Shown: positions 2,986 through 25,817 of the stretch, piece after piece
Position numbering within the stretch: position 1 is the stretch's first letter
Layout: every line of letters starts with the position of its first letter
Source of the DNA: Salinisphaeraceae bacterium
GTDB lineage: Bacteria; Pseudomonadota; Gammaproteobacteria; Nevskiales; Salinisphaeraceae
Direction of reading: 5' to 3'
DNA: 32,000 nt
Assembly (NCBI GenBank): GCA_040222795.1
Contig: JAVKCJ010000037.1
Coordinates: 18,798 to 50,797 of the forward strand
Translations under genes and position numbers: made by a program
Notes under the pieces: generated by a model
What the model was told of the DNA's origin: nothing
The model's input: only the letters and a program-made list of their open reading frames with translations
Database searches by the model: none

Positions 2986-3060
2986 TGCCCGGGAAACCCC
3001 CCTCATATACGCCTGCAAAAGCCAGACGTTCCCGCCATGCCCGGCCGTAGGATTTCTTAC

Positions 3061-3795: not shown

Positions 3796-4370
3796 ACCGT
3801 CTGCTCGTTCTGTCCTTCATTCCCCTGTTTGGCGCGTGCGCCATCGGTAACTCCGATTTCGCTTGCAGCGGCGTTCCCGAGGGCAAGACTTGTATGTCAG
3901 CGCTCGAGGTCTATGACGCCACCAATGGCGTGCATCAGTCACCTCATGGTGCCGGCGGCCATGCCCACCACGATGGCCATGCCCCATCAGATCCGACTTC
4001 TACCGGGCGTTCTCTCACGCCCGCTCCACTGGTGTTGTCCCGTGGGGGAATCAGCCCATCGCCTGATCGTCCCGTTCCGATTCGGACCGAGCCCAAGACG
4101 CTTCGGATCCTCATCGGACCCTGGCAGGACCAGGATCGGGACCTGAATGCCGGCGGGTATGTTTTCACCGACCTTGCACCCCGCACCTGGAATATCGGTG
4201 CCGGCCCGGAAGCGGCCACCGCCCCCGTATATCCCGTATCGGTGGGTGACTCCTCGACATCGGGCGGCAGCTCGGCAGACACAGATCGGCCAGCATCCGC
4301 ACCCACGACGTCGTCAGGTGGAAGTTCACCGGATGTGGGGCGCGCATATTTCGATTCCGACCGCCAGTAA
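3792..4370 (+). CDS. traV: F-type T4SS outer-membrane lipoprotein TraV
   Basis: Lipobox PLFGAC followed by the conserved Cys pattern (FACSG..GKTCMSALEVYD) typical of TraV. P/S/G-rich C-terminus. ATGA overlap with the dsbC-like stop. Confidence 0.75.
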   Translation: MNRLLVLSFIPLFGACAIGNSDFACSGVPEGKTCMSALEVYDATNGVHQSPHGAGGHAHHDGHAPSDPTSTGRSLTPAPLVLSRGGISPSPDRPVPIRTEPKTLRILIGPWQDQDRDLNAGGYVFTDLAPRTWNIGAGPEAATAPVYPVSVGDSSTSGGSSADTDRPASAPTTSSGGSSPDVGRAYFDSDRQ

Positions 4371-4754: not shown

Positions 4755-7208
4755 ATGTTGGCGCCCCTGCGCGAAAAGCTCTACGAGCACAATCACTCCA
4801 GTGATCTCTTCCCGGTGCTTGCTTACGACAGCGATCACCATCTGTTCGTGTTGAGTGATACCGCGGTCGGGTTCGCCTTTCTCTCCAACCCACTCAACGG
4901 GGCTGACGAGACCACCGCTGAAAAGATCAACGTCCTGCTCAATCAGGATTTCCCCGGTGACACCATTCTGTCCGTGAGTCTGATCGGCCATCGCGACATC
5001 GAATACTGGCTGACGGACTTCGTTTCCCGTCGCATTCCTCACCGCAATGATTCGCCGATGCACAACCTGCTCTACGAGAGCACCGTCGAATCTTCCAAGT
5101 TCATGCGTCGTGGCACCCGGCGCCCCATCGAGAACCGCAACCACACCAAGGTTCGCGACATTCTCAGCCTGATTACCGTCAAGATACCGCTACAAAACCC
5201 AGAGCCCAGCGAGCTCGAGCTCGAGACGCTCGGACAACTCCGGCGCAGTGTTCAGCAGACCATCGATATCATTGGCATGAAGCCGACCCCGGTGGATGCC
5301 TCAATGTACGTTCGCCTGATGTCGGTTCTTCTTCACGGGGGCGACAATCCGCGGTGGCAATCCGAATTCGACCTCTACGATGACCAGCAGCTCATCTGCG
5401 ACCAGGTGCTGGATCTGGACACGGCCATCTCCGTAGATCCAACCGGCCTATGGGCGGGCGATCCGCGCAACAAAGAAGAGCGCACCCGGATCAAGGTCCT
5501 CAGCCCCAAGCGCATCCCCAAGGAAGTGCATATCAACAGTGCAGCGCTCTATGTTGGCGATCCGTTGAGTGGCACCCGCGGTATCCGCGGCAATTTCCTG
5601 CTGAATTTCAACATCCATTACCCCAATGCCGAGCAGCTGAAAAGCAAGCTCGAAAAGCGCCGGCAGTGGGCCACGCAGCAGGCCGGCGGCAAGCTCGTCA
5701 AGTTCGTTCCGCAGCTGGTCGACACAAAGCGCAGCTTCGACACGATGTTCCAGGCGCTGGATGACGGTGATCGGCCGGTTCGTCTTTCGATGTCCCTGAT
5801 GCTCTTTGCCGATGACGAGGAAGAAGCCGCTGGGGCTGTGTCCGTGGCCAAGACCTATTACCGGGAACTTGGCTACCAGATGCTCGAAGATCGATTCTTC
5901 TGCCTGCCGATCTTCATCAACAACTTGCCTTTCGGCGCCGACCGAAAGGCCGTCGAAGAGCTCAAGCGGTATCGATCACTGGCCACTCGCCACGTCAGCC
6001 ACATGCTGCCTCTTATCAGCGAGTGGAAGGGTACCCGCACACCCGTTCTGCAGTTCGTCAGCCGCAATGGACAGATCATGAACTTCGATCTGTTCGATTC
6101 TCAGAGCTCCTACAACTGTGCCATCGCCGCGGAGAGTGGCAGCGGCAAGTCGTTCCTGGTCAACGCCATGGCCTCGTCCTACCTCAGCCTTGGCGCCAAG
6201 GTATTCATCATCGACGTGGGGCGAAGCTACGAAAAGCTCGCGAAATCGTTCGGCGGTTCTTTCATCGAGTTCACCGACGAATCGAATATCTGCCTCAATC
6301 CGTTCCCGATCGTGATGAACTATAACGACGAGGTGGACATGCTCGCGACGGTCATCTCGACCATGGCCCAGCCCAGCGGGCCTATTTCGGACTTTCAGAA
6401 CTCGAACCTGCGCCGCATCCTTCGGCGTGGTTGGGAGGCCCACAAGCAGGATCTGACCATCGACATTGTCTCGGACATGCTCCGAGAGCATGAAGATCGA
6501 CGCATTCAGGACCTTGGCGAGCAGTTATTCCAGTTCACCGTGGCCGGTGAGTACGGGCGTTGGTTCAATGGCCCCAACACGATGCAGTTCGATAACCCTT
6601 TCACGGTGCTCGAACTCGAGGAACTCAAAGGCCGCCGTCATCTTCAGCAGATCGTGCTGCTGATGCTGATCTATCAGATCAACAACGAGATGTACCTGGG
6701 CGACCGCGGCCGCCGCAAAGTTGTCATCATCGACGAAGCCTGGCAGCTCCTCACGGAGGGGGATGTCGGAGAATTCATCGTCCATGGCTACCGGCGCGCC
6801 AGAAAGTACGGCGGGGCATTTGCTGTGGCGACTCAGTCGGTCAACGACCTGTATTCGAACAATACGGGCGTGGCCATTGCCGAAAACAGCCCCAACAAGA
6901 TCCTGCTCGGCCAGAACGCTGAAACCGTGGCCAACCTCAAGCGTACCCAGCGAATTGATCTGCCCGAAGCTGGCTACGAGTTCCTGAAATCGGTCAAGAC
7001 GGTGACCGGGGTCTACTCGGAGATGTTCATCAACACTGGCAACGGCATCGGTATCGCCCGCCTCATCGTGGATCGCTTCCGTCAGCTTCTCTACAGCACC
7101 AAGGCGGAGGAAGTATCCGAGATCAACAAGCTGGTGGACTCCGGCCTTTCGATTACCGATGCGATCCATCGCATCATGGCCCGCGAGAACGGCGATGAAG
7201 CTGCTTGA
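4755..7208 (+). CDS. traC: F-type T4SS ATPase TraC (VirB4 family)
   Basis: 817 aa. Walker A AESGSGKSF, Walker B VVIIDEAW. Size and position are typical of TraC/TrhC. Confidence 0.9.
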   Translation: MLAPLREKLYEHNHSSDLFPVLAYDSDHHLFVLSDTAVGFAFLSNPLNGADETTAEKINVLLNQDFPGDTILSVSLIGHRDIEYWLTDFVSRRIPHRNDSPMHNLLYESTVESSKFMRRGTRRPIENRNHTKVRDILSLITVKIPLQNPEPSELELETLGQLRRSVQQTIDIIGMKPTPVDASMYVRLMSVLLHGGDNPRWQSEFDLYDDQQLICDQVLDLDTAISVDPTGLWAGDPRNKEERTRIKVLSPKRIPKEVHINSAALYVGDPLSGTRGIRGNFLLNFNIHYPNAEQLKSKLEKRRQWATQQAGGKLVKFVPQLVDTKRSFDTMFQALDDGDRPVRLSMSLMLFADDEEEAAGAVSVAKTYYRELGYQMLEDRFFCLPIFINNLPFGADRKAVEELKRYRSLATRHVSHMLPLISEWKGTRTPVLQFVSRNGQIMNFDLFDSQSSYNCAIAAESGSGKSFLVNAMASSYLSLGAKVFIIDVGRSYEKLAKSFGGSFIEFTDESNICLNPFPIVMNYNDEVDMLATVISTMAQPSGPISDFQNSNLRRILRRGWEAHKQDLTIDIVSDMLREHEDRRIQDLGEQLFQFTVAGEYGRWFNGPNTMQFDNPFTVLELEELKGRRHLQQIVLLMLIYQINNEMYLGDRGRRKVVIIDEAWQLLTEGDVGEFIVHGYRRARKYGGAFAVATQSVNDLYSNNTGVAIAENSPNKILLGQNAETVANLKRTQRIDLPEAGYEFLKSVKTVTGVYSEMFINTGNGIGIARLIVDRFRQLLYSTKAEEVSEINKLVDSGLSITDAIHRIMARENGDEAA

Positions 7209-10457: not shown

Positions 10458-13400
10458 ATGGCTTTCCCGACATTGAATCCTCTTCGAGTTCTGCCACTGC
10501 TTGGGGCTGTGGCGACGGCGTGTCAGCCCTGGATCCCAGCAATGGTGGTCCTGATGTCCGCGACACCGACTATCGCCCAGGCCCCTGCCGGCGACCCGGA
10601 GGAGTATCTGCGCCAGGGTGAGTCGTTCGGCGAAAGTCAGCGCTTGAATGCGCCCCGTCCGGGATTCTCTCCCGACAGCTATCAGATCACGGTGCCCAAT
10701 CGCGACGGCACCTCCACCCAGATGGACTTCGGGACCCGTCCCGATGGGACGACTTACTCGCCGTCGGATATCGACGGGTTGCGAAACTCCTACGGTGATA
10801 ATGCCGAGACCCGTCAGCAGGTTGATAACCGGCCACCTGATCCCGCCGCCGATACCGTTGATCCGGTGAAATCGGACCGCTCCCGCACCTCGATGGAGAA
10901 TGACCCGACGATCGCCCGGTCCGATCAATACCTGCAGGGTATGGAACGTGACGGTGGCTTTACCGCCCAAACCCAGCAGTGCCAGGTGGTTGAACCCCAG
11001 GACGATGGCAGCCCTCATGTCGAAGACCCCCGCGATTGCGTGAGTGTCGATGCCCCGGCCATCGCCGAGTGCACGATCGACAACGAGCTGCAGCTCTCGA
11101 CCACGGACAACCAGGCGGTGGCCCTGACGATCCTGATCGAGAAATCCGATTCCATGCGTGGCGGCAACCGGATGGAGGATGCTGCCAGCGCCACGGTTTC
11201 CGTAGCCCGGGCATTGGAATCCGCAGTGTTCACCGAATACTCGGTCCATGCCTATGCCCGCGGTGGCGACGACCCTGCTTCGGCTGATGGTATGGCCTCG
11301 AGCTACTCCTTGACCGCATTTCCCGAGAACATCAACGACCCTGGCGTCATTACTCGATATGCCGAGATAGAAGCGGACGCGAACTCGACGCCGACAGCCA
11401 GCGTCATGGATGCGGCGGCCAATGTCCTGGTCAGCAGCCGGCGGGAACCGCGCAAGCTCGTGCTTGTGCTCACCGATGGCCGGCCGAGCTTTGAACAGAC
11501 CTGTCCCAATGCCGCGGACTGCAATCCCCGAGGTGTTGCCGAGCACTACGCGGGCGAGGTCCAGGTGGCTGCGGTGGGCATTCAAAGCGATGCCGTTCAG
11601 GACGACTTCGATCTCTACCGTGTCGCCAACTCCAGTGGCCAGATAGCAGAAGCCGTTTTCGAGATCCTGTCAGAGGACCTTGGCTGGTTCCAGGTCTCCA
11701 ACGTCTGGAAGCCCGACACCTGCATCGAGACCGCCCAGGAGGTACAGAACGAGACCTTCGCCGGCGAGATTTCCTGCAGTGCGCCACCGGATAGCAGCGG
11801 CTGTGTGGAGATCGACGGCGTTCGCGTGTGTGAAGGTTCGACCTTCGCCGAGCAGATGTCCGAACCGCCGGTCGACAACGTACCGAAGGTTTGCGGTGCC
11901 ATCGAAGTCACCGATGTTGAGTATTGCTGGCGTGACTCCGATGGGTCTCAACAGTGCACCAACGACACCGACGAAGAGGCCCCGGGCCCGACACGCTGCG
12001 AGATATACCGGTCTGATCCCCAGTGCGGTATCAAGACCTCGCAGTGTGTCGAATCCACCCGCAATGAAGACGGTCAGTGCTACGTCTTCGAGGAGGTCTG
12101 GGATTGCGGCTTCCGTGAAGCCGGCCCGAACGTGACTCGTGACACCGAGGGCAATATCTATGAATGCGACGGTCAGTCGATGGGCTGCATTGACGGCAGC
12201 TGCATGGATGACCCCCAGGAGGAAAACCCGAATTTCGAGTCCATGGCCACGACCCTGCAGATGGTGGAATTCACCGCCCAGGACGAAGGCACCTGCGACA
12301 TCAACAACGGTTGTGAGCTCTTCCCTGGCGAAGCCTACTACTGTAAATCGGAGGTCTTCTACGGCGCCGAGAACTGTTGCGACGACACCCCTGAAGTCAA
12401 TTTCGTTGCCTACATCACCGCAGCAAAGCTCGCCTGGAAGGGGCTGAAGTCCGAGCAGATGGCCAACTGGATGGCCTCCTATGGCGTGGACTACATGGGC
12501 TATTGGCAGTCATTCCAGTCAGGGGCCTATGACGTCTACGGCTCCATTTCGAGCCACTTCACCAGCGCCTTCGGCTCCATGAGCGAAAGCTACGCCGGCC
12601 AGGCCGCGGTCAACCAGGGCGCTGCCAGTACCGCCGAGGCTGGATCTCAACTGGGCATTGATAGCATCAAGCAGGAAATCCTCAACCAGGTGCAACGGTG
12701 GATGGAGCGGTTCGCCCCGGCCATGCACGATGCCCTGTTTGCCGAAGGTGCACAGCAGGGTGGCCAGGCGGTGTTGTCTGATCAGGCCCAGCAGTACATT
12801 GGCTACGCCAGCTGGATCATGACAGCCTATTCCTATTACCAACTGGCCAAGTTCGCGATCACCATCATCGCCGACTGTCAGGATGATGAGCAGCCGTTGT
12901 TCAACATCAAGCGAGACAACCTACGCAGCTGCCATGTCCTTGGCGAGTATTGCCACCGTGATGATTTCTTCGGCAATTGCATCGAGCGTCGGTTGACGGG
13001 CTGCTGTTTCAACTCGCCCTTGTCGCGCATTCTTCAGCAGCAACTACACCAACAGCCGCATCTCGGGCTTTCCTGGGGAGATGTCCGTAACCCGAGCTGT
13101 GCTGCCATCCCGCTTGAAACGATGGCCCAGGTTCGCTGGGAGGATGTCGATCTCTCCGAATGGACCGACATTCTTTACGAAACCGGCATCGCGCCGAGGG
13201 CTGCCGATATGCAAGCCGCCGGCGCCCGCGACCAGAAGACCGCGAATGTCGATGACCCCAACTACTATCAGCCGCCCGATTCGGACGAACGCTACGATCG
13301 ACGCTCGACCGACCCTGAAAGTGGTGACCAGAGCTTCGATTTCTCTGAGATTCGCGACAAGAACGTGGAAGAGATGCGACGCCGCACCGATTCAGCTGAC

Positions 13401-13598
13401 GAAGCCAACAACGGCGAGAACAATCAGCCCAACGGTGGTGCTGCACAGAACCCCGACGCGGGAGCCGCCTCTCGTGCGTATGCGGTGCCGCCTTCCGGCC
13501 GCGCCGCGCTCCAGATTGAACAGGACGCCAACGGGGATGGCCGAATCGATATTCGCGACGGCGTCTGCAGCCTGTTCAACAACTGTCAGACTCAATGA
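10458..13598 (+). CDS. traN: Mating-pair stabilisation protein TraN (giant, 1046 aa)
   Basis: Long signal sequence and many Cys residues. Conserved C-terminal GCCFNSPLSRILQQQ box as in TraN. Size is comparable to R27 TrhN. Carries an internal vWA-like segment (see findings). Confidence 0.8.
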   Translation: MAFPTLNPLRVLPLLGAVATACQPWIPAMVVLMSATPTIAQAPAGDPEEYLRQGESFGESQRLNAPRPGFSPDSYQITVPNRDGTSTQMDFGTRPDGTTYSPSDIDGLRNSYGDNAETRQQVDNRPPDPAADTVDPVKSDRSRTSMENDPTIARSDQYLQGMERDGGFTAQTQQCQVVEPQDDGSPHVEDPRDCVSVDAPAIAECTIDNELQLSTTDNQAVALTILIEKSDSMRGGNRMEDAASATVSVARALESAVFTEYSVHAYARGGDDPASADGMASSYSLTAFPENINDPGVITRYAEIEADANSTPTASVMDAAANVLVSSRREPRKLVLVLTDGRPSFEQTCPNAADCNPRGVAEHYAGEVQVAAVGIQSDAVQDDFDLYRVANSSGQIAEAVFEILSEDLGWFQVSNVWKPDTCIETAQEVQNETFAGEISCSAPPDSSGCVEIDGVRVCEGSTFAEQMSEPPVDNVPKVCGAIEVTDVEYCWRDSDGSQQCTNDTDEEAPGPTRCEIYRSDPQCGIKTSQCVESTRNEDGQCYVFEEVWDCGFREAGPNVTRDTEGNIYECDGQSMGCIDGSCMDDPQEENPNFESMATTLQMVEFTAQDEGTCDINNGCELFPGEAYYCKSEVFYGAENCCDDTPEVNFVAYITAAKLAWKGLKSEQMANWMASYGVDYMGYWQSFQSGAYDVYGSISSHFTSAFGSMSESYAGQAAVNQGAASTAEAGSQLGIDSIKQEILNQVQRWMERFAPAMHDALFAEGAQQGGQAVLSDQAQQYIGYASWIMTAYSYYQLAKFAITIIADCQDDEQPLFNIKRDNLRSCHVLGEYCHRDDFFGNCIERRLTGCCFNSPLSRILQQQLHQQPHLGLSWGDVRNPSCAAIPLETMAQVRWEDVDLSEWTDILYETGIAPRAADMQAAGARDQKTANVDDPNYYQPPDSDERYDRRSTDPESGDQSFDFSEIRDKNVEEMRRRTDSADEANNGENNQPNGGAAQNPDAGAASRAYAVPPSGRAALQIEQDANGDGRIDIRDGVCSLFNNCQTQ

Positions 13599-14488
13599 CC
13601 AGCGTAGGCATATAGGCGAAGAGCCGGCACGATCGGCTCCTTCGCCAGTCGACGGCCGCCGCTTCGGGGTAGCCGCTTCTTTCGCTCGCGTTCATCCGGC
13701 GGGTAGGCGTCCAGCTCGTTATGCCGCACACCCGCGGCGCCAGGCCGCGCCGGATAGAGCAGGGGCAGGGCGGCATCGAACATCTGTCGCGTGGTCTCGT
13801 CATCAATCTTCCAGACCACGTTGGCCCGCACGGATGGCGCCACCGGCTTGACCACCGCCAATTCCTGATTCTCCGGCATCGCACTAAGGCGTGCCTGAGC
13901 CTGTTCCCGAACCCGATCCGAGAGGTGTTTCGCCCTCCGCACCATCGCCCGGCCTTGCGCCACATCCACCTTGCGGATCGAGCGATTACCACATGACCAG
14001 GTCAGGCTGATGGAGGCGGGCATCGGCTCCAGTACCCGAATCTGGCGATAGGTTTGTACAAGATGCACCCGCGCATTCCCCACCTGGGATAGTGCCTCAA
14101 CGACGGCAGGCGCTCGTCCTCTGTCCTCATTGATCAGTCGGTTGACGGCATCTTCTTTCCCCAATCCCTCGGGATGCCGGATCTCCAGCACGCGTTTTTT
14201 CACCCTGGATTTCCATTCGTTGACCCGGCGGGCACAGGCCAGGGTTTTCTCAGACACGCCCAGCGCGCCAGGGCAGCGATCGCTCCGGCTTTCCTCCTGA
14301 GACTCACGATATTCCAGTCGTCGGATCGCCGCGGCCGCGGCGGCATGCCTGGCGTTTTCCCGCCATGCCAACCAACCGGGATAGCCGGCTTGTTCGTCCT
14401 GGATCAATCGGCCTTCAAGCTCCGAGAGTGCCTCGGCAAGCCCATTGAAGGCTTCCAGAAGGGCGATGCGCATGTCATTTTTCATCAC
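13592..14488 (-). CDS. Tus-family (DNA replication terminus site-binding) protein homologue
   Basis: 298 aa against 309 aa for E. coli Tus, with collinear matches from memory. CPGALGV matches LPGVLCY. TYRQIRVLEPMPASISLTW matches AYRTLTVLHDPATLRFGW. MPENQELAVVKPVAPSVRANVVW matches [23 protein letters not shown]. The C-terminal IVPALRLYAYAGH matches IIPRLHLYVAD. The start is GTG 14488 or ATG 14485. Confidence 0.55.
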   Translation of the reverse strand: MMKNDMRIALLEAFNGLAEALSELEGRLIQDEQAGYPGWLAWRENARHAAAAAAIRRLEYRESQEESRSDRCPGALGVSEKTLACARRVNEWKSRVKKRVLEIRHPEGLGKEDAVNRLINEDRGRAPAVVEALSQVGNARVHLVQTYRQIRVLEPMPASISLTWSCGNRSIRKVDVAQGRAMVRRAKHLSDRVREQAQARLSAMPENQELAVVKPVAPSVRANVVWKIDDETTRQMFDAALPLLYPARPGAAGVRHNELDAYPPDERERKKRLPRSGGRRLAKEPIVPALRLYAYAGH

Positions 14489-14491
14489 CGC

Positions 14492-14506
14492 TATTATACC
14501 ATCCCC
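14492..14506 (-). promoter_or_regulatory. Left arm of the 15-bp perfect inverted repeat; extended -10 promoter facing the tus-like gene
   Basis: The minus strand reads GGGGATGGTATAATA and contains TGGTATAAT (TGnTATAAT). 7 nt separate the -10 from the A of ATG 14485. No Shine-Dalgarno sequence is present. Confidence 0.5.
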
Positions 14507-14623
14507 AGAGGAAGGGGTAGACGGACGTCTGTTTGCCGAACTTTTTTCTTCTATGCTCTTCTTCTATCCCCTATAACCGCCGCCGATCTTGTGCTACGAC
14601 GCGGACGGTCATGCAGCCCAAAA

Positions 14624-14638
14624 GGGGATGGTATAATA
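14624..14638 (+). promoter_or_regulatory. Right arm of the 15-bp perfect inverted repeat; extended -10 promoter facing the small basic ORF
   Basis: The plus strand reads GGGGATGGTATAATA. 6 nt separate the -10 from the A of ATG 14644. No Shine-Dalgarno sequence is present. Confidence 0.5.
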
Positions 14639-14643
14639 ACGAC

Positions 14644-14805
14644 ATGAAAGGCAAGACAACATCGGCGAGGCCACGAGTTCGCAATCGAGTCGCCCAGTCA
14701 GCCTGGGACCGGCAGAGCGGGCCACATGGCAAAACGCGCAAGGCGGATCGCCGTGCTGAGAAGATGGCCGATCGTCGTGCCCTTCGGGAGCGGCTGGACG
14801 ATTAG
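14644..14805 (+). CDS. Hypothetical small, highly basic protein (53 aa)
   Basis: ATG lies 6 nt after the extended -10. The protein is R/K-rich (MKGKTTSARPRVRNRV..RKADRRAEK..). Third-position GC is moderately coding-like. The region could instead be the 5' part of a non-coding antisense RNA. Confidence 0.35.
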   Translation: MKGKTTSARPRVRNRVAQSAWDRQSGPHGKTRKADRRAEKMADRRALRERLDD

Positions 14806-15911
14806 TCGTGCAATCGGCGGCCCACCCTGAGCACCGGGTCGAAGCTGTACAGATGTTCCCTGGGCGCGTTTCGGCAAGTCCCCACCAGGCGCCCGGGATG
14901 ACGCCAGCGAGACCCTTCGCGGATCTCCAGCTCGCCGCCACATAGCTTGCAGCGCCCCTCATAGGCGGACAGGCGCAACCGCTTGACCTCATAACCCCAC
15001 TGGTCCACACGCCGCTGTGGGTCATATTTGAACTCAAGCAGCAGGGTAGGGTGGTCAATGCGCGTTCGCATCCAGGCTGGGGCAACCACCACTCCAAGAC
15101 GTTGCACGCTGACGAACGCCCCGACTGAACGCCACAAGATCCAGCCGCTGAAAACGAGCACCACCATCGTGGTGACCCAAGGCCGCAGGCCTTCCTTGTC
15201 TGACGCGGTGATCACGGCGGCGTAGGCCACAACGATGCTCACAGCCACGATCAGGCTAACTGTCAGGTAGAAGAAGGCCCCCGACATACCTGCCAGTCTC
15301 AGGTTTCCCAGAAAGCGCCCGAGACGGGGCATCTCTGGCAGCCTCGACACTTCGTATCTCACCTCATTGTCGGCGAGCTTCGGGCTCGTGGCTTTGGGCG
15401 TGTCGTGGGCGTTCGACCGGGCACGGATCGCCAACCCATAGACAACCGCGTTGCCCGATCCGCCCGCACCGGCGTCGTAGCGAGCAAGCGCGACTTCAGC
15501 GGGAATCCCCGCGTCGGCCAGTCGCTCCTCCGCTACAGCCTTGGCTTCTTGCCACCAGCTACCCTCGCTCAGCGTCTTCCAGTAACGCCGAACCCGACCG
15601 GCAAACTCCGATCCGTAGTCCACCTCATAGCTGTCCGGCATGCGCCGACCGTTGCGAAGTTCGTAACCGGCCACGTAGAGTTCCCGGCCATCGAGCTCTT
15701 TTACCCAGCGACCGTCTGATGCCTGATCGCACAGGGCCATCGCCAGACATTGCGGCCAACGCTCTCGCCCGGGGCGATGCATGCTCTTGAGCACGTCGCT
15801 CACAACGGCCCAGTAGGCATCGACCGGGTTTTCAGCCCCCTTCTCGGACCCCTTGTAACCCCCATCGGGCGCTGTTTCGCTGCTCGTCGCCTCGCCAGAA
15901 TGAGCCTGCAT
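14802..15911 (-). CDS. Hypothetical membrane protein: N-terminal soluble domain, 2 TM helices, C-terminal zinc-ribbon-like domain
   Basis: 369 aa. TM segments GAFFYLTVSLIVAVSIVVAYAAVI and WVTTMVVLVFSGWILWRSVGAF. C-terminal CKLCGG..x21..C..x6..H. AGGT lies about 11 nt upstream of the ATG. I recognise no family. Confidence 0.6.
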   Translation of the reverse strand: MQAHSGEATSSETAPDGGYKGSEKGAENPVDAYWAVVSDVLKSMHRPGRERWPQCLAMALCDQASDGRWVKELDGRELYVAGYELRNGRRMPDSYEVDYGSEFAGRVRRYWKTLSEGSWWQEAKAVAEERLADAGIPAEVALARYDAGAGGSGNAVVYGLAIRARSNAHDTPKATSPKLADNEVRYEVSRLPEMPRLGRFLGNLRLAGMSGAFFYLTVSLIVAVSIVVAYAAVITASDKEGLRPWVTTMVVLVFSGWILWRSVGAFVSVQRLGVVVAPAWMRTRIDHPTLLLEFKYDPQRRVDQWGYEVKRLRLSAYEGRCKLCGGELEIREGSRWRHPGRLVGTCRNAPREHLYSFDPVLRVGRRLHD

Positions 15912-15960: not shown

Positions 15961-16752
15961 TCATCGCCGGAAGTGAAGCACCCGCCCCTGGTTGAGATAG
16001 ATCGGAACCTGGTTCCGTCCTTTCTTCGGTGCCAGATAGATGTAGGCGTTGGCCGGCAGGCGCTGACTCCAGGCGCTCACGGCGCCGATCTCATGCCAAC
16101 GGGTCACCAGATTTCGATTCTGGTCATAAGCATTGAAGTAGCCCCGCACCATGTATGCCGGTCGCCCCCCTGCCAGCGGATTCCCTGGCGCCAGATCCGC
16201 GGTGACTTTGGCCGGAGCCCCACCACTGCAAATCTCAGTCGAGCACCCGCTGCCTTCCACGTAGATGCTGTCTCGCCGACGAACGCCCCTGCTGCCTTCG
16301 GGTATCCGACGCATGGTTAGGCCGGGGTTGAGCAGAAAATCATCGACATCACGCAGAATCATCTCGGTGACCATCGACTCGGCCCGTTCCGCGTCGCCAG
16401 CCTGTGCCTTGGGCACGATCACGGCCAACGCGTCGTTGCGAGCGATGTGCGGGGACGCGGCAAAGAAGCTGAGCAGATCGACGGCGCCAAACGCGGCGCC
16501 CTGCATCATGCCAAGCCCCGCGGTGACTGCCTCGGTCTCGCTGTCGAACTTGTCGTAGGCAGCCTGGCGTTCGATGGTTCGCTGCGTCTTGACGTCCTGC
16601 AGCGGCCCCTCCTCGTCGGTCAGCCCCTGGGCATGAGCGATATTCCATGCCCGGCTCTTGCTGGCCTGGTAATCCACTGTTTTCGGGGCACTGGCGCAAC
16701 CAGCCACTGCGGCAATCCCACACAGCAAAAGGACGGTCTTGATCGTGTTCAT
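15961..16752 (-). CDS. Hypothetical lipoprotein
   Basis: ATG 16752 is preceded by GGGAG at 8 nt. Signal peptide plus lipobox (LLLCGIAAVAGCAS). 263 aa. No recognised family. Confidence 0.65.
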   Translation of the reverse strand: MNTIKTVLLLCGIAAVAGCASAPKTVDYQASKSRAWNIAHAQGLTDEEGPLQDVKTQRTIERQAAYDKFDSETEAVTAGLGMMQGAAFGAVDLLSFFAASPHIARNDALAVIVPKAQAGDAERAESMVTEMILRDVDDFLLNPGLTMRRIPEGSRGVRRRDSIYVEGSGCSTEICSGGAPAKVTADLAPGNPLAGGRPAYMVRGYFNAYDQNRNLVTRWHEIGAVSAWSQRLPANAYIYLAPKKGRNQVPIYLNQGRVLHFRR

Positions 16753-16932
16753 TCTGGTAACTCCCAAGTGATGCGCGTCGCCGCGCTATCTCCCTTTGTG
16801 CCACGCCCCCGGTGATTTGCAACACCAGACCCAACATATCCCAAGGTAGCCTGTCCGCGTCGGGCGTCAGGGCTTAATCCCACCGAAAACGGCCGACTCT
16901 TCCACGCCCCTTGTCACCCGGTATGCGCTTTC

Positions 16933-18532: not shown

Positions 18533-18952
18533 ATGCGCATAGCACCAAGCGACGTTCAGACAGGATTTTCGCTGCTTGAGCTGATGATTGTTGTCGCGCT
18601 CATCTCAATTCTCGTCTGCATCGCCATCCCCGGGTACCAAACCTACGTCCAAACCGCCCGGCAAACAGACGCTCAGCGCTTTCTGCTCGAGATGTCGTCG
18701 CGGATCCAGACGTATCGCCTAAGCAACCGCATTTATCCGGCTGGCCTGGGGAGCGATCCCGGGCAGATACCCATCAGCCTTCCCGACCGTCTGGACGACT
18801 ACTACAGCGTTTCCTACACCCTCGATGCCAATGGCACCCCCCCCGTTTATCGGGTTACGGCCACCCCTGTTCCAGATTCTCCCCAGGCGTCCCGTCCGGA
18901 GCTCACGCTGGTCAGCAATGGCCTTCGCTCCCCAGCTTCGGCGTGGAAATGA
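18533..18952 (+). CDS. pilE: Type IV pilin-like protein, PilE type
   Basis: Class III prepilin signal ..VQTG/FSLLELMIVVALISIL, followed by IPGYQTYVQTARQTDAQ, typical of PilE. Confidence 0.8.
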   Translation: MRIAPSDVQTGFSLLELMIVVALISILVCIAIPGYQTYVQTARQTDAQRFLLEMSSRIQTYRLSNRIYPAGLGSDPGQIPISLPDRLDDYYSVSYTLDANGTPPVYRVTATPVPDSPQASRPELTLVSNGLRSPASAWK

Positions 18953-19452
18953 TCGGTCCGTTCTTCCAGAAGGGGTTTACGCTACTCGACGCCTTGGTCG
19001 TGATAGCAGTGCTCGCCGTAGCTCTCGGGCTGGGTACGCCAGCATTCGACCACTACATTAAAGCCAGCTCTGTTCGCACATCTGCCTCCGAGCTGCAAAA
19101 GGCGTTCATCCTCGCTCGTACGGCCGCCATTGAACGTGCGGTTCCGGTGTATGTTTACCCTGATGCCAGTTGGGGGAAGGGCTTCGCCGTTACGGTGGCT
19201 CAGAATAAAACTCCAGAATCCTGCAGCAAGGATAGTACCGACTGCCTGCATCACATGACGCCTTCGGAATTCTCCCGCGCCAAGATTCGCGCGACAGATG
19301 CCGCTATTGAGTTCCTTCCGACTGGCGAATCCACGACTCCGACGACTCTCATCGTCTGTGCCGAAGATTACGGGGATCTCCGCACCATTCACTTGTTGGC
19401 AAGTGGGCGGACATTTGTCTTGCCGGACACGGGCGCTTGCGATGCGTCTTGA
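18943..19452 (+). CDS. fimT: GspH/FimT/FimU-family minor pilin
   Basis: Prepilin motif QKG/FTLLDALVVIAVLAV, then SELQKAFILARTAAIERAVPVYV, typical of the GspH/FimT family. Overlaps the pilE stop. Confidence 0.7.
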   Translation: MEMIGPFFQKGFTLLDALVVIAVLAVALGLGTPAFDHYIKASSVRTSASELQKAFILARTAAIERAVPVYVYPDASWGKGFAVTVAQNKTPESCSKDSTDCLHHMTPSEFSRAKIRATDAAIEFLPTGESTTPTTLIVCAEDYGDLRTIHLLASGRTFVLPDTGACDAS

Positions 19453-20008
19453 GCAGGGCGTCACCCTCATTGAGATTCTTATATCCCTCCTGGTCCTGAG
19501 TATCGGGCTGCTGGGCTTGGCCGGGTTGCAGGTGAGTGCTCAGCAACTCTCCATGGATGCTTACGAGCAAGAGCGCGCTGGATTGCTTGCTGACTACATC
19601 GTCGAACGTATCGCGTTGAATCGCGAGGCCCGGCAGTGCTACGGCTTTACCGATCCGGTTACCGGCGGTCCCGCGATCGGCCAGGGCGTCGAGATCGACC
19701 TGACTTGCACCGGGTTTGGCACTATCGCGACCCAAGAACTTGCCGAGGCCGATCTCGCAGCCTGGGAGCAAATGCTCGAAGGCGCGACTGAGACTCTCGC
19801 GGGAAACAACGTCGGCGCCATGGTCAACGCCCGAGGTTGCATTTGGCTTGATGCCGACGCCAATACCGCGACGATTGCGGTCACTTGGCAAGGGGAAATT
19901 CAGGCGGATGCGCCCCCGGCATCCCTCTGCGGCGCGAATCAATACGGCGACGAACGCTACCGCCGCGCGCTTATTCGCACCCTTGAGTTCGCGGACCTAG
20001 ACGCATGA
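19442..20008 (+). CDS. pilV: Type IV pilus minor pilin PilV
   Basis: Internal ATG 19442 gives MRLEQG/VTLIEILISLLVLSIGLLGLAGLQ, the canonical PilV N-terminus. The longer ORF-track start 19298 overlaps fimT. Confidence 0.8.
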   Translation: MRLEQGVTLIEILISLLVLSIGLLGLAGLQVSAQQLSMDAYEQERAGLLADYIVERIALNREARQCYGFTDPVTGGPAIGQGVEIDLTCTGFGTIATQELAEADLAAWEQMLEGATETLAGNNVGAMVNARGCIWLDADANTATIAVTWQGEIQADAPPASLCGANQYGDERYRRALIRTLEFADLDA

Positions 20009-20123
20009 GGCGCTCGCGCCAACAAGCGGGCTTTACCCTCATCGAGCTTCTGATCGCGCTCACCCTGGGCTTGCTCGTTATTGCGGCTGCTGGGGCAGTG
20101 TCCTTAGCCGGGTTCGGTCCCAC

Positions 20124-20987
20124 TCACACGGACGGTTTGGAAAGGGCTTCAAACTGCTGATCGAGTTTATCGAGTCTACGTTGCATCCTCGGGTTATGAA
20201 ATCGCTCGATGTAGTCGAAAACGTCTGAGCGAGCCTGGGCTCGGGTCAGGTATTTCCGTCGGCGGACCCGCTCGCGCTTGAGCACGCCGAAAAAGCCCTC
20301 GCAGGCGGCGTTATCACCGCAGTGGCCGACCGCACTCATGCTGCTGACGAGATTCTGGTCTTTGAGAAAGCCCTGCACCTCATGACTGGTGAATTGCGTG
20401 CCGCGATCCGAATGCAGGATCACCGGCTGGCCGGGGTCCTCACGACGTCCCAGCGCGGCGGTCACCGCATCCAGCACCAGCTGACGCTGCTGCGTCGCGC
20501 CCATCGACCAGCCGATCACGAGCTTGCTGTAAAGGTCGATCACCACGCACAGAAATAGCCAGCCTTCGGCGGTGCGGATCTGGGTGATATCGGTCACCCA
20601 TTTGGTGTTGGGCTCAAGCGCGGCGAAGTCGCGCTCGAGATGATTGGCGATGCCGATGGGTCGCAGCCCCGATGGCTTGTAACGCCAGGACCGGGCCACT
20701 GGGATCCCGTGGATGCCGTGTCGGCGCATCAGGCGTGCGACCCGATTGAGACTGGCCCGCTCGCCTTCAAAGCCGAGTTCTTCGTGCATGCGCCGGCGTC
20801 CCATCACGCCGAGATGATCGGCATGGATCGCCCGAATGCGGCTCAGTAGCCTGCGATTGTCACGTACCCGAGCACTGGGCCGGCGTTTCTGCCAGTCGTA
20901 GAAACCGCTGTGCGAGACCCGCAAACAGCGGCACATCAGCCGCACCGGATAGTCGCCGCGGCCAGCATCGATCGCCTGGTACTTCAA
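20124..20987 (-). CDS. IS3-family transposase OrfB (DDE), probably made as an OrfAB fusion by -1 frameshift
   Basis: DDE triad contexts [15 protein letters not shown] and [11 protein letters not shown]. The orfB frame stays open upstream to the T TTT TTG heptamer at 21029-21023. Confidence 0.9.
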
Positions 20988-21277
20988 TTCGATTCCCTGG
21001 CGAAGAATGTGGCCGCGTCTCGCAAAAAATCGCGTTCCTTTTTCAGGCGCGCGTTCTCCCGCTTGAGCCGGGCCACCTCCTCGTCGCGGGGCGTACCAGT
21101 GCCGCCGAAGGCGGTCCGGCCTTGCTCGTCGGTCTCGCGGCGCCAGCGACTGAGCAGGTTGGCGGCGATGCCAATGTCGCGGGCGACCTGGGTCACGCTG
21201 ACATCCGGATGCCGGGTCAATTCAACCGCTTCGCGCTTGAACTCGGGACTGAATCTTCTTCGCTTGGACATGGACAC
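20984..21277 (-). CDS. IS3-family transposase OrfA (HTH)
   Basis: 97 aa. [42 protein letters not shown] and a leucine-zipper-like tail, as in IS3 OrfA. Confidence 0.9.
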
Positions 21278-22223
21278 TCCTTTGGGCCATTGTGACGCCT
21301 TTCGTATGTGTCCGTGCTAGCGGGACCGAACCCGCCGGCACGTTGTCACATCAGTCCCTCGATCAATCCTCAACCGTCATGGAGCGTGGTGGCGCCGCCC
21401 TTCGCATGATCAAGCGTGAACTCATTCATGCTGGTTACTACGGGCGTTACGCCAACCTGGATAACCCCATCCCAGCGCCACCCGCGACCCCTAACCCCTG
21501 TGCCACTGACCTTGCATCTCTGCGTGTCGCTGCAGCGCTGCCAATCCAGGGTTATGACGCACCCACGGGGAAGCCCTTGCCTTGTCTGTCCGACAGCAAC
21601 CACATCGATGGCACTGACATTCTGGTTATTCGTCGCGCTTCGCCCATTCAGACGACAGGATCCTTATCCCCTTCCCGCGTCTATCTTCAGTCCAACGCGA
21701 TGGCATTAAGACTGGATAGTGGCGACGGCAGTTTTGATCTGACTGATCGCTTCGGTCTCCCGTCGGCGATACGCGAGTATTACGTCGATATTTACTTCAT
21801 CAGCCCCTGTCTTGTCACCACGGCCAATGAGTGCACAGCTGATGCTGATGGCGGCAACCCTATCCCTACCTTGAAACGACTCAGGCTTTCTAGTAACGGC
21901 GTAAGCCCAGTCTTCACCGAACAGCCTATGATCGAGGGGGTGGAGAATCTCCAGTTCGATTTCGGTCTCGACACGACCGAGGATGGCATCGTCGATCCGC
22001 CGTATGTCACCGCGCCGCTCACGCCCCCTGATTGGGCCGACGTGATTGCTCTTCAGGCATTCGTCCTGGCGCGGTCAATTGGCCCAGATGCCGGCGCCGC
22101 ATCTCAGCGCACCTATCACCTCGGGCTTGCTGGCAGCTTCGGCCCCTTTGCCGATCGCGTACTTCGCCATTCCTATGCGACCTCCATGCGTCTTATGAAT
22201 GTCGCAGGACGCCGAGAGCTCCC

Positions 22224-22658
22224 ATGACCATTGGTCGCCCGCAACCGCAGCGGGGCTTTGCTCTGGTGATCTCCCTGATTCTTCTGGCAGTCCTTTCCTT
22301 AATCGCAGCCAGTTCTGCCTCCCTGTCCAGGTTCGACGCACAACGAGTCTCCTTTCTCGAAAACCGTGCCGCGGTAAAGGATTCGTCTCTTCAGGCATTG
22401 GAACAAGCTTTGAGTGATCCGGCCTTTTTGAAAGGCGCAGCGACACGAGACCTCTCTCTCAACGCGGTCAATGTCACCGTGGCCGTGCCGCTATGCACTC
22501 GTGCCACCACAATGGCTGGGTTCAGTCTCAAGAACCCCCTATCTCTCGAACGCGCTTACTGGCGACTCGATGTCAGCGGGCAGGACACCGTCTCTTCCGC
22601 AGCCTTTCGTGCGCGCCAGGGGATTCGCACCATCCAGACCGCAGCAGGCTGCCCATGA
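22224..22658 (+). CDS. pilX: Type IV pilus minor pilin PilX
   Basis: ATGA overlap with pilW. N-terminus MTIGRPQPQRG/FALVISLILLAVLSLIA matches the PilX N-terminal domain pattern (no Glu5). 144 aa. Confidence 0.7.
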   Translation: MTIGRPQPQRGFALVISLILLAVLSLIAASSASLSRFDAQRVSFLENRAAVKDSSLQALEQALSDPAFLKGAATRDLSLNAVNVTVAVPLCTRATTMAGFSLKNPLSLERAYWRLDVSGQDTVSSAAFRARQGIRTIQTAAGCP

Positions 22659-25600
22659 AACACCTTCTCGCTTCCGCCTTGCTTGGCCTTGGCGTTCTGG
22701 CATGGCTCCCCGTTAAGGCCGAAGATATCGATCTGTACCGTCAGGACACGGGGAGCATTTCGGCCCCGGACGTGCTCTTTTTCATAGACAACAGCGCGAA
22801 CTGGAACGCCTCGATTGGCACGACCAGCAAGCGAGAGCTTGAGCATCAGGCGCTCACCACCTTCTTTAGCAATCCGGATATCGTCGGCACGATGAATGTC
22901 GGGATCATGCTCTTTTCCAAGGGCAACTCCCCGAAGGGAGGAAAGATCATCGAGTCGGTGAAGCCCCTTACCGAAAGCTATCGGCAGCATCTGTTATCTC
23001 GAATCGAAGAAGGTCTTCCCAAGACCAACAACGCCCCTTTGGCGCTATCGCTCGAAGAGGCCAGGCGGTACTACGGTGGTATTGCTCCGCGATCGGGGAC
23101 CCAGGACGGCAGCACCGGGGAAGACCGGTACGACACGGACGCCATTGAAGGCGACGGCAGCTATGATTCCCCCGGCAATAACACCGGCGGATGCGGTCGC
23201 CATTACATCGTTTTCATCTCCAATGGAGAGCCAGACAGTGGCGAAAACCGCGATGCGGAGAATCAGCTGCAAGCCATTGATGGGATACTGGATTCTGACC
23301 CGATCAACCTTGACCCGAGTCAGTTCGAGAGCAGCTGGGCTGACGAATACAGTCGCTGGCTTGCCAATAACCAGGTCATGCATGAGGGAATCCGTACAGC
23401 CTATCCGTCTGTTTACACCTATGTGATTGATGTCTTTGCGGATTCCGAGACCACCGACGACAATCAGCAATCCAACGGGAACAAGAAGAAGGGGCAGGGC
23501 GGCGGCGGGCAAAACGGCAATCGGAAATTCGAAAGCGCCCGAGCCCTCAATCGCAGCATCGCTGATCAGGGCAAGGGCCGCTATTTCACCGCGGCATCTG
23601 CCGCTGACGTGAATGACGCCCTGGTTTCAATTGCTGACGAGATCCAATCGGTCAATTCTGTGTTCGCCTCAACTGCGCTGCCCGTCTCGGTCAACGTGCG
23701 AGGCACAAACCTTAACCAGGTGTACCTGGGCGTATTCCGCCCCGATGGTGACGACACCACCCGTTGGCAAGGTAATCTCAAGCTCTTCGAGCTTGCCCTC
23801 GACGATGCCACCGACGAGCTCTTCCTTGCGGACCGCCATGGCAATCGCGCTCAGTCCGCTGTCACGGGTTTTATTGCACCAGGCAGCGAAAGCCACTGGA
23901 GTCATAGTTCCAGCTTCTGGGCCTTTTCTCCTAGTGGCACCCCGCCATCGGAAAGTGATCTCCCAGATGCGGAGGTGGTGGAGAAAGGCGGGGTCCACCA
24001 ACGCCTTCGCGACGCCGAAAGCAACGGCACGATAGTGGGCCAGCGTTCCGTTTACACTTGTGCAGGCGGGTGTACCCAGGGTGGCTTGCTATCCGATAAC
24101 CTGTTCGCCCCTTCCAATGCCGCAATCACTCAAGCGGATCTGGGAGCCGCTGACGTGGAAGATCGGGCCGACATCATCAATTGGGTGCTCGGGCTTGATA
24201 ACCATGAAGATGAGGACGGAGATGGCCAGCGCACCGATGCGCGCTCCTCGATTCACGGCGACGTCCTGCATTCGCGTCCGGCGTTGATCAACTACAACCG
24301 TGATGGCACAGATAACGACATCGTCGCCATCTACGGGGCCAACGATGGCCAGATACGCGCAGTGCAAGGAGGTTTCGGAGACCAGCGTGGCTCCGAGCTT
24401 TGGTCATTCATTCCTCCAGAGTTCTTCCCCCGTCTCAAAGCGCTGCGCGATAACGACGTCCGTGGTAAGTCTTACTTTGCCGACGGTAACGTCGTCCCTT
24501 ACATCGTTGATTCGAATCAGGACGGCGATCTCGCTGACGCAGGCGACAAGGCCTTCGTATACGTCGTCATGAGACGTGGTGGGAATTTCATTTATGCTCT
24601 GGACATCTCCAACCCCGACGCTCCACGCTTTCTATGGTCCATTTCGGATCAGACTGCAGGCTTCGCGGAGCTGGGTGAAACCTGGGGCGCCCCGGTAGTC
24701 GGCCGAATAGAGGCACACGACAGCCCAGTTGCCGTGATTCCCGGCGGGTACGACCCAGGTGCCGATGACCCAGAATCCAATGACTCCCGCAGCATGGGGC
24801 GCTCCATTTATGTGGTTGATGCTGTTACCGGCGCTTTGATCTGGCAGGCGAGCGGCAATCTCGATCCATCTGGCCCCGGCGCCTCGTTACTCGTTCCCGG
24901 GATGACCCACTCGATGCCGGCGGATGCCACGGCCATCGACCGAGACCAGAACGGTTTCCTCGATCGGATATACCAACCGGATACCGGGGGACAACTATGG
25001 CGGTTCGACATTGCCAATCCGGACCCATCGCAGTGGGAGGCGTCCCGTCTGGCCAGCGTCGGCGATGACCAGGAGTTTCTCTATGCGCCCGATGTGGTAG
25101 CTGGCGGAGACAGCGCAGGTGCCTTCGATGCAATTCTGATTGGCGCAGGCGATCGTGAAGACCCCTTCGATACCTCTGTGACCAACCGCTACTACATGAT
25201 TAAGGATCGGGCGGTAACCGAGTCACGTACAGGATATGCCACGGTCACGCTTGCCGACCTGCATGATGCCACCCCTGCAGATCTTCAGAACGGGGTTGCC
25301 TCAGCCCAAACGGCGCTGGACGCATCCAGTGGTTGGTATTTGACGCTCTCCAACCCTGGTGAAAAAGTCGTCAGTACAGCAACAACCATCAACGGGGTAG
25401 TGTTCTTCAACACCACCCAACCGCCGCCTGCTGATGCGCTGACCTGCTCTGTGAGTCTCGGTATAGCTCGACTCTACTCAGTGAGCTACAAGGACGCGAC
25501 CGCAGTAGCTGATCAAAGGGCCCCTGCTGGACTGGACGTGCAGGACCGCCATGTTGAAGCCCCCGGTGGGGGTTTCCCGCCATCGCCTGTCCCAGTCGTC

Positions 25601-25720: not shown

Positions 25721-25740
25721 TGGTCCCCTGCGGGTGAAAT

Positions 25741-25762
25741 GCCTGGTCATATATGACCAGGC
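25741..25762. repeat. Perfect 22-bp palindrome GCCTGGTCATATATGACCAGGC
   Basis: Read directly, 21 nt after the pilY1 stop. A third ATGACCA half-site lies at 25775-25781, and TCTAGC occurs twice (25765-70, 25792-97). Confidence 0.85.
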
Positions 25763-25817
25763 GATCTAGCCCCAAATGACCATCTTTTTGGTCTAGCGTC
25801 GGAGCTTCATTCAACGG

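Follow-up and report, generated by a model that had tools for sequence, protein, structure and literature searches.

A divergent Tus-family gene with a candidate pair of Ter-like sites in its promoter region on an IncA/C-like conjugative element

Introduction

Tus-Ter is the textbook bacterial fork trap, and both where it came from and how it works are debated, the mechanisms under discussion being a C(6) 'mousetrap', clamp-like binding and contact with the helicase. In 1988, Horiuchi and Hidaka reportedly described paired inverted ter sites on plasmid R6K, which uses the Tus of its host. To our knowledge, plasmid-borne Tus proteins have not been characterised to date, and neither have their sites. 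Here, we describe a divergent Tus-family gene, together with a candidate pair of Ter-like sites in its promoter region, in a 32,000-nt stretch of DNA from a Salinisphaeraceae bacterium (GenBank assembly GCA_040222795.1, contig JAVKCJ010000037.1, positions 18,798 to 50,797; hereafter the window). Judging from its gene content, the carrier of this gene is an SXT/R391-IncA/C-like conjugative element (relaxase class MOBH; mating-pair formation type F, MPF-F).

Autoregulation of Tus through a ter site in its promoter is established in E. coli, and the same source mentions the R6K terminus (PMC10331603). The C(6) cytosine pocket of E. coli Tus consists of residues I79, F140, H144 and G149, whereas R198 slows the approaching replisome and E49 takes part in helicase interaction (PMC10331603). 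Ter sites that do not form a lock, as well as a clamp component, are described in two further papers (PMC8707476; PMC4499146). 'Mobile' genes of the Pfam family PF05472 occur on plasmids, and chromosomal tus was proposed to have been domesticated from them (Galli et al. 2019, PMC6549158). These mobile tus genes are scattered over plasmids and chromosomes of Gammaproteobacteria, a tus gene also lies beside ori2 on the Pseudoalteromonas chromid, and their Ter sites were either unidentified or diverged from the E. coli consensus (PMC6549158, PMC7858055). Tus genes have likewise been annotated on IncA/C, IncT (Rts1), pAQU1 and Moritella plasmids (PMC4036041).

An initial annotation of the window had reported a Tus homologue and had noted, correctly, that such homologues are found on large conjugative plasmids. 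In addition to the plasmids named above, a tblastn search of PLSDB with E. coli Tus returned at least 1,289 plasmids, mostly IncC-like, 1,069 of which were conjugative. With the window protein as the query, 17 further plasmids were found in Pseudomonas, Halomonas, Marinobacter, Methylophaga, Flagellatimonas and Thioalkalivibrio. The remark that these homologues are essentially unstudied also agreed with our literature searches, which surfaced no functional study of a plasmid-borne Tus.

Results

The window encodes a divergent Tus-family protein

13592..14485, minus strand: Tus-family (PF05472) gene, 297 amino acids (aa) from the conserved ATG; predicted isoelectric point (pI) 10.0

The proposed Tus homology was borne out by family models, profile comparisons and structure prediction alike. 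PF05472 matched the protein with 30.6 bits (E 2.3e-7), above its gathering cut-off of 22 bits, over residues 143-280 only. An NCBIfam scan matched no Tus model, and phmmer with the single sequence against the PDB returned no match, a family profile being required. Since word-indexed homologue searches, using either the single sequence or a profile, gave only 1-2 proteins, an exhaustive HMMER search of 1.84 billion cluster representatives was used instead. This search found 429 relatives at E <= 1e-3 (186 at E <= 1e-10), nearly all of them 280-320 aa long and aligned end to end at ~30% identity. A family profile and alignment (A1) built from 94 of these relatives matched the PDB chains 1ECR and 4XR0 of E. 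coli Tus (E 3-4e-11), with positions 7-273 aligned to Tus 6-292, and hhalign of the clade profile against Tus gave a probability of 96.1% (E 3e-9).

AlphaFold2, supplied with the 94-sequence alignment, produced a confident model (predicted local distance difference test, pLDDT, 93.4; predicted template modelling score, pTM, 0.88), whereas the single sequence alone yielded a pLDDT of 39. When this model was compared with the PDB using Foldseek, four Tus-Ter entries were the sole significant matches (E 1.5e-14 to 2.2e-13, TM score 0.65-0.69), the next-best match having an E of 0.1. The initial annotation had named the lack of a significant PF05472 or structural match to Tus as grounds for rejecting the homology, and both kinds of match were found. 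The model displays the Tus two-domain fold, with a beta-sheet DNA cleft between the domains. Identity to E. coli Tus is only ~16-20%. Collinearity with E. coli Tus at the extreme C-terminus, which had been noted previously, was confirmed by the alignment of the strand IPRLHLYVAD with VPALRLYAYAGH. WP_311658727.1 from Salinisphaera sp. P385 / Spectribacter acetivorans, a member of the window protein's 90% cluster, bears the RefSeq name Tus, and its gene lies on a 232-kb contig with the same synteny as the window. Taken together, these results identify the gene product as a genuine, divergent Tus-family member that is full-length, basic and built on the two-domain fold of E. coli Tus. Genes of its kind are not new: Tus is already annotated on MOBH conjugative elements, and the window adds one more example.

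The gene had originally been given as a 298-aa open reading frame (ORF) with a GTG start (13592..14488, minus strand). This ORF is present in the window ORF list as described, but its start needs revision. Locus L001, 93% identical, has GTC in place of the GTG at 14488 but keeps the ATG at 14485, and a length of 297 aa is also that of the closest homologues. Translation therefore most likely starts at this ATG, giving a gene of 13592..14485. As the initial annotation stated, the 3' end overlaps that of traN tail-to-tail by 7 bp, and an identical overlap was found in two related contigs. The ORF is intact in four related contigs. Compared with L001, it contains 48 synonymous and 20 nonsynonymous codon differences, a ratio that indicates purifying selection.

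Sensitivity of the Pfam model within the clade was limited: at E 1e-3, PF05472 caught 50 of the 94 members and missed about half. Those missed include P0002 and a Thioalkalivibrio member, for which hhalign gave 99.8%. The closest divergent relatives (31-35% identity) are encoded in neighbourhoods of housekeeping appearance:

L005 (P0002), 6001-6900: divergent Tus-like gene
P0004 contig (JGI 3300047160): divergent Tus-like gene
L035 (P0003), 3001-3957: divergent Tus-like gene

Genes in these neighbourhoods include those for cobalamin synthesis; aroC, phaC, a peptidase gene and mutS; and genes for an aldolase and a methyltransferase. No PF05472 match is on record for P0002, P0003 or P0004, which hmmscan confirmed for P0002 only. 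Tus-like genes may therefore be present on chromosomes well beyond Enterobacterales, Aeromonadales and Pseudoalteromonas, where Pfam-based surveys would miss them.

An inverted pair of Ter-like sites lies directly upstream of the gene

14489..14506, minus strand: proximal Ter-like site, 5'-GGGGATGGTATAATAGCG-3' reading towards the gene; ends 3 nt before the ATG
14507..14623, no strand: spacer of 117 nt, with a purine-rich tract on the gene's strand at ~14541-14566 (AGAAGAAGAGCATAGAAGAAAAAAG)
14624..14641, plus strand: distal Ter-like site, 5'-GGGGATGGTATAATAACG-3'; inverted relative to the proximal site
14644..14805, plus strand: divergent small ORF of 53 aa, very basic (pI 11.7)

A search of the full replicon for the cognate site had been recommended along with the initial annotation, but so wide a search is not needed to find a strong candidate. 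Canonical Ter was absent from the 32-kb window: the core GTTGTAAC with G6 was not found, and TGTTGTAAC with at most 1 mismatch matched once, compared to 1.9 matches expected. Instead, a candidate pair was found directly upstream of the Tus-like gene, consisting of an inverted 18-bp repeat (GGGGATGGTATAATARCG) at 14489-14506 and 14624-14641. Both copies contain the core GATGGTATAAT, and their 5' ends face inward. The proximal site occupies the position and polarity of TerB, which in MG1655 (AATAAGTATGTTGTAACTAAAGT) precedes the tus ATG by 11 bp, its TAAC end being gene-proximal; in the window, it is a TAAT end that is gene-proximal.

The pair is confined to this place. The exact 15-mer of the repeat occurs at only these two positions in 32 kb (0.28 expected by chance), as does the degenerate core ATGKTNTAA (0.46 expected by chance). 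Among 596 Gb of representative genomes, the exact 18-mer was present twice on one contig only in Spectribacter acetivorans, where it represents this same pair, and the nine remaining exact matches were singletons from unrelated phyla. The proximal site is unchanged in L001, while the spacer has diverged by ~23% and the gene by 8% (P about 0.01). Divergence of the spacer is close to the synonymous rate of the gene and roughly neutral. The distal site is conserved in both L001 and L006. Divergence between the window (13592-15911) and L001 (1982-7436) is mosaic, amounting to 0.2% for the 369-aa gene beyond the small ORF, 1.9% for the small ORF (all synonymous), ~23% for the spacer, 8.1% for the Tus-like gene and 4.9% for traN, which points to a recombination boundary at or near the distal site.

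Both sites also carry an extended -10-like element (TGGTATAAT) located 6-7 nt before an ATG that lacks a Shine-Dalgarno sequence. A σ70 promoter scan that required a -35 box found nothing in the region, and the promoter reading is based on extended -10 elements only. The small ORF, whose -10-like box lies 6 nt before its ATG, is likely transcribed as a leaderless mRNA. It differs from its L001 counterpart by 3 synonymous and 0 nonsynonymous changes, and neither family searches nor PADLOC returned a match for it. Both divergent genes start with ATG-AAA, such that the inverted symmetry runs through the start codons (14485-14506 and 14624-14649), an arrangement that suggests a mirrored pair of leaderless-mRNA promoter modules. 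The intergenic region contains no known Rfam RNA. A miniature inverted-repeat transposable element was considered as the source of the repeat and rejected, given that analogous pairs with different arm sequences accompany tus genes elsewhere.

Candidate sites of the same type accompany tus-family genes in other lineages

We compared the regions upstream of tus-family genes across lineages. In seven lineages (the window with L001 and L006, counted as one, and L007, L010, L004, L032, L036 and L037), the tus-family proteins of which are only 18-34% identical, the start is preceded at 7-60 nt by a core of the form ATGKTNTA (compared to ATGTTGTAA in E. coli Ter) with the polarity of TerB. Six of the seven possess an inverted partner site, always oriented as in a fork trap. 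Aligned to Ter positions 7-17, the sites read:

E. coli TerB: TATGTTGTAAC; single, 11 bp before tus
Window: GATGGTATAAT (both sites); inverted pair, 117 nt apart
L007, Flagellatimonas plasmid: GATGGTTTATA (both sites); 24-nt arms, 136 nt apart, purine tract between
L010, Thioalkalivibrio pTK9001: TATGGTATATT / TATGGTATAAA; 32-nt arms, 313 nt apart
L004, Methylophaga plasmid: TATGTTATAAT / TGTGTTATAAT; inverted pair
L032, IncC plasmid: GATGGTCTAA(A/C); 29-nt arms, 177 nt apart, around a long CT/GA tract
L036: ATAATGGTATATT; single, 35 nt before the ATG
L037: ATAATGGTATA; four copies

The core ATGGTATA recurs upstream of the tus-like genes in L010, L036 and L037, and purine or pyrimidine tracts between or beside the sites, as in the window, were also observed in L007, L010, L032 and L037. 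On the far side of the intergenic region, each lineage has a different partner gene, the tus-family gene being the sole constant; the 53-aa ORF of the window is consequently not a constant part of the arrangement.

Two of these loci deserve closer description. Locus L037 contains four copies of (G/C)ATAATGGTATA in the strand order (-)(-)/(+)(+), all with their 5' ends towards the centre, compared to a chance expectation of ~0.2 copies for the 8-mer ATGGTATA:

L037, 844-851, 2168-2175, 2278-2285 and 2964-2971: the four sites, beside a tus-like gene, an integrase gene and a ParA-like gene

Because the inner pair lies between convergently transcribed genes, its members are not promoters of the flanking genes. 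The layout as a whole resembles a miniature fork trap with back-up sites. L032 is the IncC plasmid NZ_CP009410.1, in which the inverted pair and a CT/GA tract of ~65 nt (3200-3434) lie upstream of the annotated tus; no description of this pair was found in the literature searched. Its core (GGTCTAA) is a poor -10 box.

Two MOBH plasmids with type T mating-pair formation (MPF-T) from Proteus and Citrobacter (L033 and L034), which encode a canonical-type Tus, have a single site ~45 nt upstream of tus. The site reads AGTATG(G/T)AT(A/G)TA(T/C)ATACAG, its left half corresponding to TerB positions 5-10, G6 included. This TerB-like site (AGTATG...ATACAG) is found together with a GC hairpin at 2440-2520 in L033 and at 2420-2500 in L034. 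Shortly downstream of tus, both plasmids carry an orphan type I-E Cas6/CasE gene (4287-4805 in L033 and 3698-4078 in L034).

By alignment, the clade lacks the residues best documented for fork arrest

Residues tabulated in PMC10331603 were mapped onto the clade, after confirming the E. coli Tus sequence from MG1655. The initial annotation held that the lock pocket around F140 and H144 did not appear conserved, and two alignment methods, on which all of the pocket assignments rest, supported this view. F140 aligns with A126 (or E131) and H144 with V130 (or Q135), both positions being variable in the clade. The I79 position is aromatic in the clade (Y60 in the window protein), and that of G149 is Arg in 83 of the 94 members (R140 in the window protein). 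The latter assignment is robust, with no indel ahead of the invariant YR anchor. In addition, the R198-bearing loop is deleted in all 94 members, as it is in IncC Tus. E49 aligns with E44 in a gap-rich region of low confidence, 42 of the 94 members having a gap there. Residues P42, R139 and R288 (R272 here; 91 of 94 members) are retained, as is the C-terminal strand. IncC plasmid Tus is intermediate: it keeps I79, F140 and G149, has Arg at H144 and lacks the R198 loop. On these alignments, the E. coli-type C(6) lock pocket is not conserved in the clade of the window protein.

Gene neighbourhood and host element

10458..13598, plus strand: traN, 1046 aa; last gene of the MPF-F block, convergent with the Tus-family gene; part of the context, not of the module

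TraN was identified by PF06986 (101.6 bits) and NCBIfam PRK14876. It is unusually long, and contains a von Willebrand factor A domain in its N-terminal half (residues 223-397). The MPF-F block of the window comprises TraE, TraK, TraB, a DsbC-like protein, TraV, TraC, an S26 peptidase, TrbC/TraW, TraU and TraN. Contigs that contain the window's TraE encode, further upstream, an SLT protein, an FlhC-like protein, a TraI_2 (MOBH) relaxase, a type IV coupling protein, a DtrJ-like protein and TraL. TraU is at most ~42% identical to that of any PLSDB plasmid, and megablast of 8 kb of window DNA against PLSDB returned no match, both of which indicate that the element is uncatalogued. No tRNA genes were found within the window.

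Synteny of traN and the Tus-like gene is kept in L001 and L006. The initial annotation had called the Tus-like gene the first cargo gene after traN. Its position after traN is as stated, whereas 'cargo' is probably the wrong label: tus is probably a maintenance-type gene that recurs on MOBH conjugative elements. Adjacency to traN is specific to the lineage of the window, the tus-like genes of other plasmids not lying beside traN. PADLOC assigned neither the Tus-like gene nor its neighbours to a defence system.

Beyond the small ORF lie genes for a 369-aa protein (14802-15911) with predicted membrane segments and a C-terminal CxxC...C motif, and for a 268-aa putative lipoprotein (15961-16767). 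Both are conserved and syntenic in L001 and L006, and neither had a match in Pfam, NCBIfam or PADLOC. A type IV minor-pilin cluster (ComP/FimT-like, GspH-like, PilW, PilX and PilY1; 18533-25720) follows, split by an IS3-family transposase gene (20124-20987). The whole cluster is missing from the matching place in Spectribacter acetivorans L006, and thus represents a variable insertion. Directly after the PilY1 gene is an imperfect palindrome of 33 + 33 nt (25719-25784; 73% complementary), likely a terminator or a repetitive extragenic palindromic (REP)-like element; that it starts with GATGGTC is probably coincidental.

Further along, a RES-domain toxin is paired with an Xre/MbcA/ParS-type antitoxin (26219-27135). 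The same RES/Xre pair is found near the tus-like gene of the Halomonas plasmid L002, where a gene for an FlhD-like regulator adjoins tus. A four-gene operon (27313-30566) is kept in L006, L014 and L015, and is followed in L014 by an MmeI-type restriction-modification gene. The last protein of this operon (384 aa; 29412-30566) gave a sub-threshold match to tyrosine recombinases (17.3 bits vs 27.1), and the operon could be relevant to integration of the element.

Discussion

We propose, with a probability of about 0.55, that the gene and the sites form an autoregulated, probably lock-less Tus-Ter module on a conjugative element. According to this proposal, which is fairly well supported as regards binding and repression, the Tus-like protein would recognise, as a monomer, asymmetric Ter-like sites that lie in the promoter region of its own gene, as Tus does at TerB. 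Two divergent, probably leaderless, promoters would each have their -10 element overlapped by one of the sites, so that binding would repress both the Tus-like gene and the divergent small ORF. By analogy, each bound site would also act as a polar fork barrier. The ends that match the non-permissive face of TerB point at each other, and the two sites could thereby constitute a minimal two-site fork trap of the R6K kind. Such a trap might fix where replication of the element ends, or might prevent run-on replication. With no R198 loop and without conservation of the pocket, any arrest would depend on tight asymmetric clamping and/or helicase contact instead of the C(6) 'mousetrap', and might let more forks through than in E. 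coli. The most economical reading of the sites is that they are the cognate, Ter-derived sites of the protein: they are asymmetric and, like those of the other lineages, 100-300 bp apart, as suits a monomeric binder; the proximal one takes the place of TerB; and the pair has the geometry of a fork trap and resembles that of R6K.

Several observations weigh against this proposal. Binding and fork arrest by this protein or its close relatives are inferred from sequence and from the E. coli system. R198 and the lock pocket are the two best-documented determinants of arrest, and with both lost, arrest may be weak or absent. Resemblance of the sites to Ter is partial, with 8-9 of 14 positions matching by eye (Ter positions 6-19), and the E. 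coli-type Ter GTATGTTGTAACTA has 0 matches in the window at <=3 mismatches. The G that matches G6 is present in the window and L007 lineages only. The core that the sites share, TG-n-TATAAT, is the extended -10 consensus, and likeness across lineages could partly reflect promoter function; the IncC core and the convergent pair of L037 argue against a promoter-only origin, but come from lineages other than that of the window. About half of the lineages examined displayed no such site, mostly those in which the gene is chromosomal or is not the first of its operon; sites were not evident in Marinobacter (L027), Vibrio (L031), the pMPPla107-type megaplasmids or the operon-type loci of Pseudomonas/Stutzerimonas. 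Conservation of the distal site is uninformative, since the tract beside it hardly differs between the window and L001. Finally, were the element integrated, a two-way barrier would hinder replication of the chromosome.

The protein might instead be solely a transcription factor, repressing the divergent promoters at both sites without arresting forks, with the family having been re-used as, or having originally been, a monomeric site-specific repressor. Coincidence of both sites with -10-like elements just ahead of starts without a Shine-Dalgarno sequence, loss of R198 and of the lock pocket, and the presence of a single pair in the Spectribacter genome, at the gene itself, all fit such a role. 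We nevertheless regard it as unlikely, though by no means negligible. The inner pair of L037 lies between convergent genes, the four sites there are in fork-trap polarity, and the IncC core is not promoter-like. Moreover, E. coli Tus is both the autorepressor at TerB and a fork barrier (PMC10331603), indicating that the two roles are compatible, and polar barriers do not strictly need a lock, given the non-lock Ter sites and the clamp component described in PMC8707476 and PMC4499146.

We judge it rather improbable that the inverted repeat and the Tus-like protein are unconnected. The repeat would then be a duplicated promoter or operator for another regulator, or a hairpin that serves as an early promoter on single-stranded DNA during transfer, and the real Ter sites of the protein would lie elsewhere on the replicon, outside the window. 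The arms do form a strong predicted stem as single-stranded DNA (dG -29.5 kcal/mol, z -3.7), the symmetry reaches as far as the ATGAAA with which both genes begin, the core is identical to the extended -10 consensus, and the window covers 32 kb of the element. Set against these points is the recurrence of the same core in the same polarity beside tus-family genes in seven lineages with differing partner genes, a core that moreover resembles that of Ter and sits in TerB's position. Asymmetric arms 100-300 bp apart suit a monomeric binder better than a dimeric repressor, and the Spectribacter genome contains no further exact copy. A gene without current function, whether a remnant in decay or a Pfam match by chance, is scarcely credible. 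The Pfam match is indeed partial and modest, NCBIfam yielded no match and phmmer against the PDB came back empty; the full-length profile collinearity with Tus, the confident Tus-fold model with its Foldseek matches, the 429 full-length relatives, the substitution pattern indicative of purifying selection and the ORF intact in four related contigs together effectively refute this view.

Beyond the module itself, we put forward a more tentative idea, one that we consider possible but doubtful: the autoregulated, lock-less Tus and its two sites would be a self-contained, portable fork trap that represents the original state on plasmids. The chromosomal traps of Enterobacterales would have arisen from it by domestication, and would have gained the C(6) lock and R198 only later. 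A trap of this kind would span the range from IncC plasmids to the elements of Salinisphaerales, and would have expanded in L037 to the (-)(-)/(+)(+) array.

A Tus homologue on an element of this class is not news; what this analysis adds is the candidate cognate sites. As far as our searches show, a promoter-embedded Ter-like pair was previously undescribed in the literature searched. Concrete candidate sites are now at hand for a large divergent clade as well as for the clinically important IncC plasmids. If the sites are real, polar arrest could be studied in a naturally occurring system that lacks the lock residues, and the domestication hypothesis would gain a simple architecture, one gene with an inverted site pair, as the ancestral state. 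They would also help in understanding how replication is terminated or confined on large MOBH conjugative plasmids. Surveys of Tus likely underestimate its distribution, because PF05472 misses about half of the clade, some members of which lie in ordinary-looking chromosomal neighbourhoods. The survey of Galli et al. relied on PF05472, and the present clade has hosts that include Salinisphaerales, Nevskiales, Chromatiales, Halomonas, Marinobacter and Pseudomonas megaplasmids.

The closest described system is E. coli Tus-TerB (PDB 1ECR/2I06/4XR0). The window protein shares its fold, its full-length collinearity, P42, R139, R288 and the C-terminal strand, and the gene shares with tus an upstream Ter-like site of the same polarity, the position of which implies autoregulation. 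In contrast to E. coli, the core of the window site is ATGGTATAAT rather than ATGTTGTAAC, and there are two inverted sites 117 bp apart, whereas the ten sites of E. coli are dispersed over the terminus. The window gene further differs from chromosomal tus in residing on a conjugative element, and its product in the deletion of the R198 loop and the substitution of G149 by Arg. R6K likewise presents two short, inverted sites close together on a plasmid, which make up a local two-way trap, the polarity of the window sites being putative. Unlike the window pair, which lies beside a Tus-like gene and overlaps its promoter, R6K has canonical Ter sites and no Tus of its own. The Tus proteins of IncA/C, IncT (Rts1), pAQU1 and related MOBH plasmids belong to the same family and are carried by the same broad class of MOBH elements (PMC4036041), and IncC plasmids also possess upstream inverted 29-nt arms with GATGGTCTAA around a long purine/pyrimidine tract. 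In contrast to the window protein, with its 30.6 bits, the IncC-type proteins score 143-158 bits against PF05472 and are far more similar to canonical Tus; BLASTP between the two is not significant, and the IncC-type genes do not lie beside traN.

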